39,187 nt of DNA from a virus. The notes beneath the pieces are model-generated. The model was given only the letters and a program-made list of their open reading frames with translations, searched no databases and had not been told where the DNA came from. Where the stretch lies: the UHGV virus genome UHGV-0864147; one strand, given 5' to 3'. Shown here piece after piece: positions 11,476 to 15,639 of the stretch. Both the position numbers and the translations under genes were made by a program. Position 1 is the first letter of the stretch, and the number at the start of each line of letters is the position of its first letter.

Positions 11476-11724
11476 ATGAAAGGTGCATTAGGTAAGAAGG
11501 AACTCCTGGCGGTGGTGCCACTGTCATGGAGCACTATCGACCGCATGGAGCGCGCAGGGGAATTTCCTAAACGCTGGTATATCACTGACAAACGCTGCGC
11601 ATGGAACCGTGATGAAGTTGAGCGTTGGCTTGATGAACGTCAGGCAGCAAGCCCGGCAGAGTTCCAGGGTAAAAAGCCTCCTGTTCAGCAACGTGTATAT
11701 CGTCCTGTGAGCAACGCTGCATGA
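11476..11724 (+). CDS. AlpA-family regulator / excisionase-like
   Basis: 82 aa, LSWSTIDRMERAGEFP motif typical of AlpA/Xis HTH. Confidence 0.6.
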   Translation: MKGALGKKELLAVVPLSWSTIDRMERAGEFPKRWYITDKRCAWNRDEVERWLDERQAASPAEFQGKKPPVQQRVYRPVSNAA

Positions 11725-12970: not shown

Positions 12971-14221
12971 TTATTCCCCCGCCATCCACTTCTCAAACTT
13001 CGACGGGGAGAACGGAATCAGATCCGTATGCTCCCCGTTAATCCAGGAATCAATCATATCGGCCCACTGCTGCAACATGTAGGCGCGCTGTCTGGCGTAT
13101 TCCGCTTTGTTATATACGGCGCGCACACCTTTCTGCTCATGTGCCAGAGCCTTTTCAATCCAGTCTGAAGGATAACCAGCCTCATGCAACAACGTACTGG
13201 CTGTACGGCGCATATCGTGTACGGTGAAGCCCTGAATATGCTCACCATCTTCATTTATTATTTTCACCGTTCTGTCGATCAGAGAGTTCAGCGCGGCATT
13301 AGATAATGGCTTCCGGAAATTGTAACGACCAGGAACCAGATATTCACTTCCACCAGCGCACATCTGCAACCCAACCAATATATCCTGTGCCTGTTTAGGC
13401 AGGTAAATAACGTGCGCCCGGCTTCCCTTCATGCGGTCTGAAGGAATTGTCCATGTCCATTTTTTAAAATCTATTTCATCCCACGTTGCATTGGTGAATT
13501 CGCCTTTACGAACCATAGTGATAAGCACCAGCTTTAAAGCCATTTTCATAGTGCCCATAGCACCAATGGCATCCAGCGTGCGGAAGAACAGGCCAATTTC
13601 TTCTGGTGTCAGTGTTCGCTCTCGTGGTTTAAATATGGCGATAGACGAAGGTTTAATGTCAGCCGCAGGATTAAACAAACCATGACCACGGTCATTGGCG
13701 TGACGGTATACGCTGCTGATGATCTCCCTGGCCTGTACTGCTGTTGCCCGACCACCGCGTTCGACAATCCGGTCACACAAATCACGAACCATCGATGTGG
13801 TAATTTCAGCCATCATTTTGTTGCCAAGAACCGGAAGTATGTCACGGTCGATCACCGCCTGCTTCATTGCGCGGGTACTGTCAGCCAGGATGACGTGTTT
13901 CATATAACTGTCGGTATGTACCGCAAACGTCTCGGCACCACGAATCTTTTTGATACCGTCACGTTTAGCCGCAGCCGGTGACTGGCCTGCTTTAAGCAGC
14001 TTCTTTGCAGCAATCAGTTCTTCTCGCGCTTCTGCCAGGCTGATACCGTCACGCCCATACTGCCCGATTACCAGTGTTTCGCGGCGACCGTTGATACGGT
14101 AGTCATAGCGAAACGAGACCGTGCCTGACGTAAGCACAGCTACATACAGCCCGTCACGGTCGGAGACCTTGTACAGTTTGTCCTGCGGCTTGAGGTTTTT
14201 TAATTTTGTATCGGTAAGCAC
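12971..14221 (-). CDS. int: tyrosine integrase
   Basis: 416 aa; conserved C-terminal tyrosine-recombinase residues (R...HDMRRT...Y) recognisable; GTG start. Confidence 0.85.
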   Translation of the reverse strand: MLTDTKLKNLKPQDKLYKVSDRDGLYVAVLTSGTVSFRYDYRINGRRETLVIGQYGRDGISLAEAREELIAAKKLLKAGQSPAAAKRDGIKKIRGAETFAVHTDSYMKHVILADSTRAMKQAVIDRDILPVLGNKMMAEITTSMVRDLCDRIVERGGRATAVQAREIISSVYRHANDRGHGLFNPAADIKPSSIAIFKPRERTLTPEEIGLFFRTLDAIGAMGTMKMALKLVLITMVRKGEFTNATWDEIDFKKWTWTIPSDRMKGSRAHVIYLPKQAQDILVGLQMCAGGSEYLVPGRYNFRKPLSNAALNSLIDRTVKIINEDGEHIQGFTVHDMRRTASTLLHEAGYPSDWIEKALAHEQKGVRAVYNKAEYARQRAYMLQQWADMIDSWINGEHTDLIPFSPSKFEKWMAGE

Positions 14222-14263
14222 AATTCACCCATATAGAAACCATTTTCATGACGGTATGAGAGT

Positions 14264-14278
14264 ATACCTTTAAGGTAA
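14264..14278. promoter_or_regulatory. ATACC-N5-GGTAA site upstream of integrase
   Basis: Near-perfect copy about 45 bp upstream of int start. Confidence 0.4.
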
Positions 14279-14327
14279 TACCGTCACCTGTACCGCCGAA
14301 AAATATGGTGTAGAGTGAATAGAAATG

Positions 14328-14365
14328 AATACATAAAAACAAAAACCCTCTGCAAAAACAGAGGG
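14328..14365 (-). terminator. terminator after lysis cassette
   Basis: CCCTCTG CAAAAA CAGAGGG with U-tract on minus strand. Confidence 0.7.
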
Positions 14366-14515
14366 TTGAGTTAGCATCTGAATAGGAATGATTTGCTATG
14401 AGTTAGCTGTTAATCATTCCCACTCAATTATTTACGGATACCATAACCAATTGATTGATAACAACTTTCTGCAACATGATTTTTACCGTACCGTTTTATA
14501 TACCGTCACCGGAAA

Positions 14516-15013
14516 TCAGTGCCACGATTTTTGCTTCTTCAGTGAATCGTATTGCTGTTCGCAGGATTCTCCTGCAATCCGATACTTTTCAGCCTCAGCT
14601 GCTGTTGCGTTGTAAACTCGATTGCTTTCTTCAAGCATGTCGGCGAGCACACCGATGACCTTGCTGGCTGGCGTGCCAGTGGGGAAAGATCCGGTATAGT
14701 GTTCGGCGAGTCGCTTGGTTTTGTCAAGCTCGGCGCGCAGGCTGTCAGCAGCGGCATTAGCATGCTCAGCATCAACACGCGCCACATCGATACGGGATTG
14801 TGCTTCACGTTCAATTTGTGTTTTCTCCTGATCACGTTGTGACCTGGCCTTATCATCAGCCTGTTTCTGATCTTCCTGTGCCTGCGCATACCCGGCATCG
14901 TACTGGCGGCTGCCGTGCATATTCCAGGCAACCACTCCGACGATGAACAGAGCAGCAAGCATCAACACGATAAGCAACTGTTTCCAGTATGCTTTTACGA
15001 ATGCCCAGATCAT
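14516..15013 (-). CDS. i-spanin (Rz-like)
   Basis: N-terminal TM helix then coiled-coil periplasmic domain; follows endolysin with 4-bp overlap. Confidence 0.6.
14539..14772 (-). CDS. o-spanin (Rz1-like lipoprotein) embedded in Rz
   Basis: Alternate frame inside Rz; [12 protein letters not shown] lipobox followed by Pro-rich sequence. Confidence 0.5.
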   Translation of the reverse strand: MLSMLMPLLTACAPSLTKPSDSPNTIPDLSPLARQPARSSVCSPTCLKKAIEFTTQQQLRLKSIGLQENPANSNTIH

Positions 15014-15639
15014 ACCGCCAGCACATTACTGGCAGTGATGTACCGCGCTCTCCGGTCGTCGATGCCGTTCCTGCCACCATTGATAATCAAAGTTACACGA
15101 GCAATATCGCCGGTATACTTCATGCAACCTTTGCTGGAGAAGAACCACGCCGCGCTACGAGCCGCATATTCGTCCTGCGCTAACAGTTCAGGATTCTCCA
15201 GCAGGTCCACTTTCAGGCCGTTTCCGCAGTCACGATAGTTATTCAAACCGGTAATCTGGATAAGTCCACGGCCTCGGTAATTCCAGCCGTCACCAGGGGA
15301 ATTGTTCCCCATGCGTTTGCTGTACACCAGATTGGCGATCGCTCGCTGGCGCTCGAGTGGCAATGGTGGTTCACCAGCACGGCGACCCAGTGCATTAGCC
15401 TGCCCCTGAGTGAGACGCCCAGCCCGAACGAAGTTAGCCAGACCGCTGACACTGTAGTTGAAATTCTCCTGCAATCTGGTGAAGCCCACAGATTCATGCC
15501 CGACCTGAGCAATAAACATTGCCTGATCCTCTGCTTTGCTGATACCAAACTCTTTCATCGCAGAAGTTATATGCGAGAACCAGCGAGCGGCCAGCGCCTC
15601 TCTAATACCAGCAGCTCGCTGGAATTGTTTAATCTCCAT
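15010..15639 (-). CDS. endolysin, glycoside hydrolase family 19-like
   Basis: Motifs FIAQVGHES and GRGLIQITG typical of GH19 chitinase-like lysozymes. Confidence 0.8.

Follow-up and report, generated by a model that had tools for sequence, protein, structure and literature searches.

The probable attP of a phiV10/epsilon15-type phage at the 3' end of guaA, with candidate integrase arm sites reaching into int

Introduction

The attP site of phage lambda is built from P and P' arms that carry arm-type sites, a C-O-C' core between them, and sites for IHF and Xis. A group of integrases named the 'epsilon15 cluster' by Smyshlyaev et al. (PMC8138268) uses a protein-coding gene as its address, all members targeting the 3' flank of guaA. 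In phage vB_EcoP_ZX5, the 17-bp core shared by attP and attB has been verified by PCR and Sanger sequencing, and the same core is stated as proven for phiV10 and epsilon15 (PMC9782041). GIsul2 islands use the sequence GAGTGGGA at the guaA 3' end (PMC9376610). For KplE1, PMC2951348 describes an int promoter that overlaps an att arm and is repressed by both Int and the excision factor; KplE1 and P4 are not known to have intragenic arm sites.

Here we analysed a viral genome of 39,187 nucleotides (UHGV-0864147), referred to below as the window. A preliminary description, made from the letters of the sequence, had proposed an attP at positions 14222-14515 on the strength of repeats beside the integrase gene. 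For the phage group to which the window belongs, the attP site and the guaA target are already known, and the repeats of epsilon15 are already annotated. We report the position of the core in this phage, the arrangement of its putative arm sites, and how that arrangement compares among relatives.

Results

We assign the window to the phiV10/epsilon15-like Uetakeviruses, a temperate podophage type. The window region is 95-97% identical to the phiV10-group Uetakeviruses and ~80% identical to epsilon15. The placement of the proposed attP region directly upstream of int was borne out by the gene order (Table 1). Int has an N-terminal Arm-DNA-bind_3 domain (PF13356, E=4e-20, residues 2-87), a central PF22022 domain and a catalytic PF00589 domain; it shares 99% identity with the Int of phiV10 and 87.6% with that of epsilon15. 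We place it in the epsilon15 cluster, among the guaA-targeting integrases of the IntSXT subgroup. The Rz-like DUF2514 gene on the other side of the spacer differs from its phiV10 counterpart at its 3' end (window 14516-14530), where the alignment breaks and the gene measures 498 nt compared to 483 nt in phiV10.

A short ORF of the AlpA family lies ~1.2 kb beyond int and is not adjacent to it; its counterpart in the phiV10 record carries an AlpA family annotation. In most of the distant guaA-integrating loci, alpA homologues directly follow int in convergent orientation, suggesting that the two genes belong to one conserved recombination module, which in this phage has been split. The AlpA-family ORF is a likely candidate for the recombination directionality factor (excisionase) of this attP.

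Table 1. Features of the attP region and associated genes, in int reading direction. Offsets are counted from the first base of GAGTGGGA, int sense. Arm-type designations are putative.
Feature	Coordinates	Strand	Offset	Remarks
DUF2514/Rz-like lysis gene	14516-15013	minus		followed by a 294-bp spacer, then int
P' arm-type site, perfect TGACGGTAT	14500-14508	minus	-83	invariant in seven phage attPs
Degenerate P' partner AAACGGTAC	14488-14496	minus	-71	in tandem with the perfect P' site
Two overlapping perfect matches to IHF consensus WATCAANNNNTTR	14444-14460	minus		between core and P'; candidate H' site
attP core AATCATTCCCACTCAAT	14412-14428			from lysogen junctions, rebuilt attB and published core
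Probable overlap region GAGTGGGA	14418-14425			within core; same site as reported for GIsul2
Inverted near-copy of core, TGAATAGGAATGATT	14379-14393			87% complementary, 18 nt from core
Intrinsic terminator	14344-14367	minus		10-bp stem, T-run; predicted to act on the lysis operon (phage) and guaA (lysogen)
Second direct TGAATAG(R)AATGA copy (CTATTCA, int sense)	14314-14328			separated from the first copy by the terminator, at a distance of 63 bp
Degenerate P-arm site CGGCGGTAC	14290-14298	minus	+127	perfect P site 12 bp downstream
P arm-type site, perfect TGACGGTAT	14278-14286	minus	+139	invariant in seven-phage attP alignment
Degenerate site TAAAGGTAT	14262-14272	minus		overlaps the best int -10 candidate, TATACT
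Inverted arm-type site TGACGGTAT	14249-14257	plus	+168	27 bp before the int start
int	12971-14221	minus		PF13356, PF22022, PF00589; 99% identical to phiV10 Int
Intragenic arm-type copy, int +170	14043-14051	minus		codons 57-60, RDGI; annotated in epsilon15
Intragenic arm-type copy, int +260	13953-13961	minus		codons 87-90, RDGI; annotated in epsilon15
Intragenic inverted copy TGTCGGTAT, int +304	13909-13917	plus		codons 102-104, one mismatch
AlpA-family ORF	11476-11724	plus		PF05930, 24.2 bits (cut-off 21)

The core was located from lysogen junctions. E. coli 50579417 carries a related prophage, inserted between yfgI and guaA; its int-side junction reads ...gctgttaATCATTCCCACTCAATggtagctgg... 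and continues into guaA, and its Rz-side junction reads ...gggatcaaaATCATTCCCACTCAATtatttacgg.... The only sequence common to attP, attL and attR is the 17-bp AATCATTCCCACTCAAT at 14412-14428, which is the reverse complement of ATT GAG TGG GAA TGA TT, the last four codons of guaA (I-E-W-E) and its stop. Sequence related to the window, in the sense of some match to it, is present in 565 of 5426 complete E. coli genomes. The match ends exactly at 14428, beside guaA, in at least the 21 best-matching lysogens, and the attB rebuilt from both junctions is intact in 4571 of the 5426 genomes. The core is identical to the verified core of vB_EcoP_ZX5 (PMC9782041) and sits between the two 11-bp direct repeats on which the earlier proposal was based. 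The position of the core and the guaA target are demonstrated by this analysis: the junctions map inside 14222-14515 and not elsewhere, as the preliminary description had predicted. Its expectation that the target is not a tRNA gene also held, the core being the guaA 3' end and ARAGORN finding no tRNA or tmRNA in 13500-15200. A permissive Rfam search gave no match at the gathering score and three sub-threshold matches, none of them credible. A P4-like attP with a tRNA-gene core was rejected on these observations. Taken as a whole, 14222-14515 is very probably the attP of a phiV10/epsilon15-type phage that works in a lambda-like manner and inserts at the end of guaA.

Reading of the sequence confirmed the 11-bp direct repeat of the preliminary description, ATACCGTCACC, at 14278-14288 and 14500-14510, and its inverted partial copy, which is TGACGGTAT at 14249-14257. 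The conserved unit is the 9-bp TGACGGTAT (int sense), bases 10 and 11 varying among relatives. Beyond these, we found three exact copies within the int gene, two direct (14043-14052, 13953-13962) and one inverted (13700-13709), an inverted copy with one mismatch at 13909-13917, and degenerate partners at 14290-14298 and 14488-14496, 12 bp from each perfect site. With at most one mismatch allowed, ATACCGTCAC occurs 10 times in the 39-kb window compared to 1.4 expected (~7-fold), and six of these matches cluster around the core within 13700-14510. Chance resemblance between words of an AT-rich spacer, with attP elsewhere, would draw only on the shortness of the motif as an explanation of the repeats, and its probability is negligible: none of 100 shuffles reached the observed count, the lysogen junctions fall between the repeats, and the motif is conserved across three bacterial classes. 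The shuffle statistics and the junctions refute it. The motif differs from the core and flanks it on both sides, as the arm sites of a lambda-type attP do, and the repeated ATACCGTCA words are probably the integrase arm sites of this attP.

Close relatives were compared in an alignment of seven phage attPs. Besides the perfect sites, the sequences GTGACGGTATATAAAACGGTA in the P' arm and TGACGGTATTACC in the P arm are invariant in it, as are the core with its left flank, the terminator stem, CTATTCACTCTA of the CTATTCA repeat at 14314-14328, and ACGGTA of the degenerate site at 14488-14496, for which there are relatives with two good copies at -83/-71. The counterpart of 14290-14298 is a perfect TGACGGTAT in Klebsiella relatives, that of 14262-14272 reads TTACGGTAT in Klebsiella, and the inverted site at 14249-14257 carries one to two mismatches in some close relatives. 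The epsilon15 record (AY150271.2) marks four 10-bp 'integrase' sites, an annotation that is itself a prediction; they equal ATACCGTCAC and are spaced by 90, 235 and 222 bp, as in the window. The P' site at 14500-14508 and the P site at 14278-14286 both match protein_bind features of this set.

To cover more distant integrases, we collected int homologues from GTDB genomes, giving 32 loci whose Int is at least ~47% identical. In 27 of them, int is preceded by the guaA 3' end at a distance of 190-360 bp; of the remaining five, three have an upstream stretch too short to judge. The 27 guaA-linked loci span Gamma-, Beta- and Alphaproteobacteria, and nearly all have several copies of TGACGGTA(T/A) between guaA and int. 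A search of IMG/VR with the window Int returned only loci 99-100% identical to it, mostly cut at int; distant intact attPs were obtained from IMG/VR with a profile of the distant Ints. These have a tandem at -83/-71, a pair at +127/+139, inverted copies at +168 to +179, and further direct copies at +202 to +213 and +261 to +274. The window fits this layout, with perfect sites at -83 and +139, degenerate ones at -71 and +127 and the inverted site at +168. The +139 site is found in L137 and, with one mismatch, in L199, and L148 has a +127/+139 pair of one-mismatch copies.

A sister lineage of integrases, 53% identical to the window Int, has CATGGTAT in place of GACGGTAT (type 2, as against type 1 in the window). 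Its sites lie at -83/-71, +139/+152, inverted +170/+189, +216 and +285. A layout that stays fixed as the motif changes with the integrase is the pattern expected of arm-type sites, and binding of these sites by Int is suggested by their positional conservation together with the concerted switch of motif in the sister lineage. The arm-type reading given in the preliminary description gains support from the Arm-DNA-bind_3 domain of Int, the epsilon15 GenBank annotation and the conserved positions in distant relatives.

We next describe the elements between the arm sites. The IHF consensus matches the window seven times compared to 2.0 expected. In the attP region the matches are on the P' side only; the P arm (at most one mismatch) has none except one that overlaps the core. 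The block TCAATTGGTTATG at the IHF matches is conserved in the seven-phage alignment, and the epsilon15 record annotates an IHF site at the place of one of the two matches at 14444-14460. The hairpin described earlier as a bidirectional terminator is real, and its T-run follows on the minus strand only (tails: minus, TTTGTTTTTA; plus, TGAGTTAGC), so that it is a terminator in one direction. It is also annotated in phiV10 and epsilon15. Its stem (AAAAACCCTCTG / ACAGAGGGTT) is shared with the native guaA terminator of E. coli (14341-14370 compared to 1650-1680 of L004, the guaA-yfgI spacer), suggesting that integration restores both the end of guaA and its terminator and protects int against transcription running through from guaA. 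What the phage carries appears to be a diverged version of the host's own guaA-downstream sequence, and on integration it takes the place of the latter.

The inverted near-copy of the core, TGAATAGGAATGATT, contains one CTATTCA (int sense) and is conserved in the seven-phage alignment. In minus-strand RNA, whether a guaA or a lysis transcript, the near-copy is predicted to pair with the core (14379-14426), giving a hairpin of 15 bp just ahead of the terminator (-38.1 kcal/mol, z = -6.2); RNase III sites are marked around here in the epsilon15 record. Analogous repeats on both sides of the hairpin are CTATCG in beta/alpha type-1 relatives and TCTGGCA in the sister lineage (relatives compared: L029, L031, L033, L034, L160 and L152). 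Since the sequence of this second repeat differs between lineages that keep the arm motif and the core, it probably binds a different protein, and the CTATTCA repeats may be sites for the AlpA-type excision factor. We also considered that they are extra core-type sites of Int, since one CTATTCA belongs to the inverted near-copy of the core. However, the similar repeat in beta-proteobacterial relatives is direct, not inverted, relative to the core, and the repeat varies by lineage whereas the core does not; an excision factor fits these observations better.

A promoter scan found no consensus sigma-70 promoter upstream of int. Two arm sites enclose the best -10 candidate, TATACT (TATAAT in epsilon15); given the outcome of the scan, it is a putative promoter element, and autoregulation of int is proposed by analogy with KplE1 and P4, where the int promoter is under repression by Int (PMC2951348).

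The flanking of this candidate by two copies of the motif would also suit a different reading of the TGACGGTAT repeats, in which the AlpA-family excision factor, or some other regulator of the phage, binds them and controls int expression or the directionality of excision. Most distant guaA loci have an alpA homologue together with int, and conservation of the motif tracks both genes, so phylogenetic association alone cannot assign the motif to Int over AlpA. The arrangement of the sites argues for Int: they keep a fixed layout and flank the core on both of its arms, which is the pattern of Int arm sites. Excision-factor sites normally lie on one arm only, as in lambda and KplE1. A separate family of repeats (CTATTCA/CTATCG/TCTGGCA) already occupies the place expected for an excision factor, between core and arm sites, and Enterobacterial and beta/alpha type-1 relatives share TGACGGTAT but differ in this second repeat. 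We therefore consider it improbable that the TGACGGTAT repeats belong to AlpA or another regulator, and treat them below as putative Int sites.

Three copies of the motif lie in the DNA that encodes the arm-binding domain of Int itself. We examined the first 360 nt of int, which are free of indels, in 22 homologues 63-87% identical to the window at the DNA level. The third base is invariant in only 11 of 118 degenerate codons, and eight of these 11 (codons 57-59, 88-89 and 102-104) fall in the nine codons of the three copies (hypergeometric P=2e-9). The TGACGGTAT at int +170 is the only invariant 9-nt run in the 22 homologues, ACGGTA of the +260 copy is likewise invariant, and the +304 copy is an exact ATACCGTCA in Morganella (L017). 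Invariance of third bases at the motif codons shows that the three intragenic copies are kept by selection on DNA.

The intragenic copies might instead be a by-product of a repeated R-D-G-I peptide and codon usage, with only the copies outside int being functional. RDG does occur three times in Int (residues 22-24, 57-59 and 87-89), CGT-GAC-GG yields most of the motif, and the first RDG gives a copy with two mismatches at 14148-14156; a Caulobacter relative has RDGI at 57-60 written in other codons, and the intragenic sites are far from the core. This explanation is nevertheless unlikely. It does not account for third positions that are invariant exactly at the motif codons. All 22 homologues have T as the third base of codon 57 although the residue itself changes (R, C, I, P, A or S), and the protein-invariant RDG at 22-24, an internal control, drifts synonymously, its third bases being variable (15, 17 and 15 of 22). 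Furthermore, where type-1 lineages are devoid of copies within int, two additional ones occur upstream in their place, at +204 and +274. In the sister lineage, whose Ints read VGG or PGG at residues 57-59, int has no copy inside it. Conservation among the int homologues does not extend to the exact copy at 13700-13709, which may be due to chance and is accordingly not counted as a functional site. At 370-510 bp, the three conserved copies are more distant from the core than classical arm sites are, and could serve regulation rather than assembly of the intasome.

Some relatives have a composite P' arm. In phiV10 (L002), epsilon15 (L001) and six IMG/VR contigs (L151-L156), a type-1 pair at -83/-71 is accompanied by a type-2 pair at -113/-101. 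The six contigs have a Uetakevirus backbone with an int and a P arm of the sister lineage. Between the phiV10/epsilon15-type sequences and these contigs, similarity breaks right after the core.

Discussion

The following scheme could account for the arrangement of the site; the protein-DNA contacts, the autoregulation and the roles of IHF and AlpA in it are all conjectural. The C-terminal domains of Int would bind the 17-bp core at 14412-14428, with strand exchange within GAGTGGGA against the identical sequence at the host guaA 3' end. The N-terminal domain would bind TGACGGTAT sites on both arms: the tandem pair at 14488-14508 on the P' arm, the tandem at 14278-14298 and the inverted site at 14249-14257 on the P arm, and probably three more sites on the P-arm side in the 5' coding region of int. 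A bend made by IHF at 14444-14460 would help to fold the arms onto the core. Integration would rebuild the last four codons and the stop of guaA and place the phage-borne copy of the guaA terminator (14344-14367) behind them; in the phage, the same terminator would stop lysis-operon transcripts before they reach int. The promoter of int has to be located amid the P-arm sites, so Int is probably a repressor of its own gene, like IntS of KplE1. The AlpA-family protein (11476-11724) would likely be the excision factor, perhaps acting through the CTATTCA repeats.

The break in similarity after the core suggests that whole modules of core, P arm and int have been exchanged by recombination at the guaA core. 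We tentatively combine this with the intragenic copies: the Enterobacterial branch would have moved part of its arm set into int, and composite P' arms would allow modules to be swapped. We regard this joint proposal as nearly evenly balanced. In it, the intragenic copies replace the two promoter-proximal sites of other lineages and may have a role in the intasome or act as a brake on int transcription. If it is true, a composite P' arm, holding pairs for two Int specificities, would permit module swapping at the guaA core.

For the annotation of this phage, the attP core, the putative arm sites and the guaA host target are now fixed. Reasoning from repeats beside int proved to work here. Biologically, the outcome brings little that is new. 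What is new, and of modest value, is a deeply conserved layout of putative arm sites for the guaA-targeting integrase cluster, together with a second Int lineage that has the same layout and a different motif; the evidence for coding-sequence-embedded sites under DNA-level selection is a modest extra. The layout could guide the engineering of guaA-targeting integrases or the prediction of attP in related islands such as GIsul2.

The closest counterparts are epsilon15, phiV10 and vB_EcoP_ZX5, which have the same 17-bp core ATTGAGTGGGAATGATT, the same target at the guaA 3' end and a core ~190 bp upstream of int (PMC9782041). Epsilon15 has four ATACCGTCAC copies at spacings identical to those of the window, and the terminator is the same in phiV10 and epsilon15. 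These two phages carry an extra CATGGCAT-N4-CATGGTAC pair at -113/-101 in the P' arm, which the window lacks because the 3' end of its Rz gene differs; otherwise the site is the same. GIsul2 and other guaA islands also integrate at the guaA 3' end at GAGTGGGA and carry int and alpA (PMC9376610), but are islands, not phages.

KplE1 (CPS-53) with IntS/TorI and P4 with Int/Vis show the same order of target gene, core, excision-factor sites, arm sites and int in the same orientation. They also share with the window a P4-like integrase and an excision-factor gene that is not co-transcribed with int. Their targets are tRNA genes, whereas that of the window is guaA, and the autoregulation proposed for the window is an analogy with them.

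The likeness to the lambda attP lies in an Int of two domains, the N-terminal one being for arm binding, in putative arm sites that are repeated on either side of a short core, in a tandem pair on P', in a candidate IHF site placed between P' and the core, and in an excision factor (putative in the window) distinct from Int. In contrast to lambda, the target of the window is the 3' end of a protein gene that the phage restores, and the arm motif is unrelated to that of lambda. Unlike in lambda, attP precedes int in the window and transcription of int leads away from the core, so that the int promoter would sit in the arm. The window also has a terminator inside the P arm and an excision factor of the putative AlpA type whose gene is not next to int but ~1.2 kb away.
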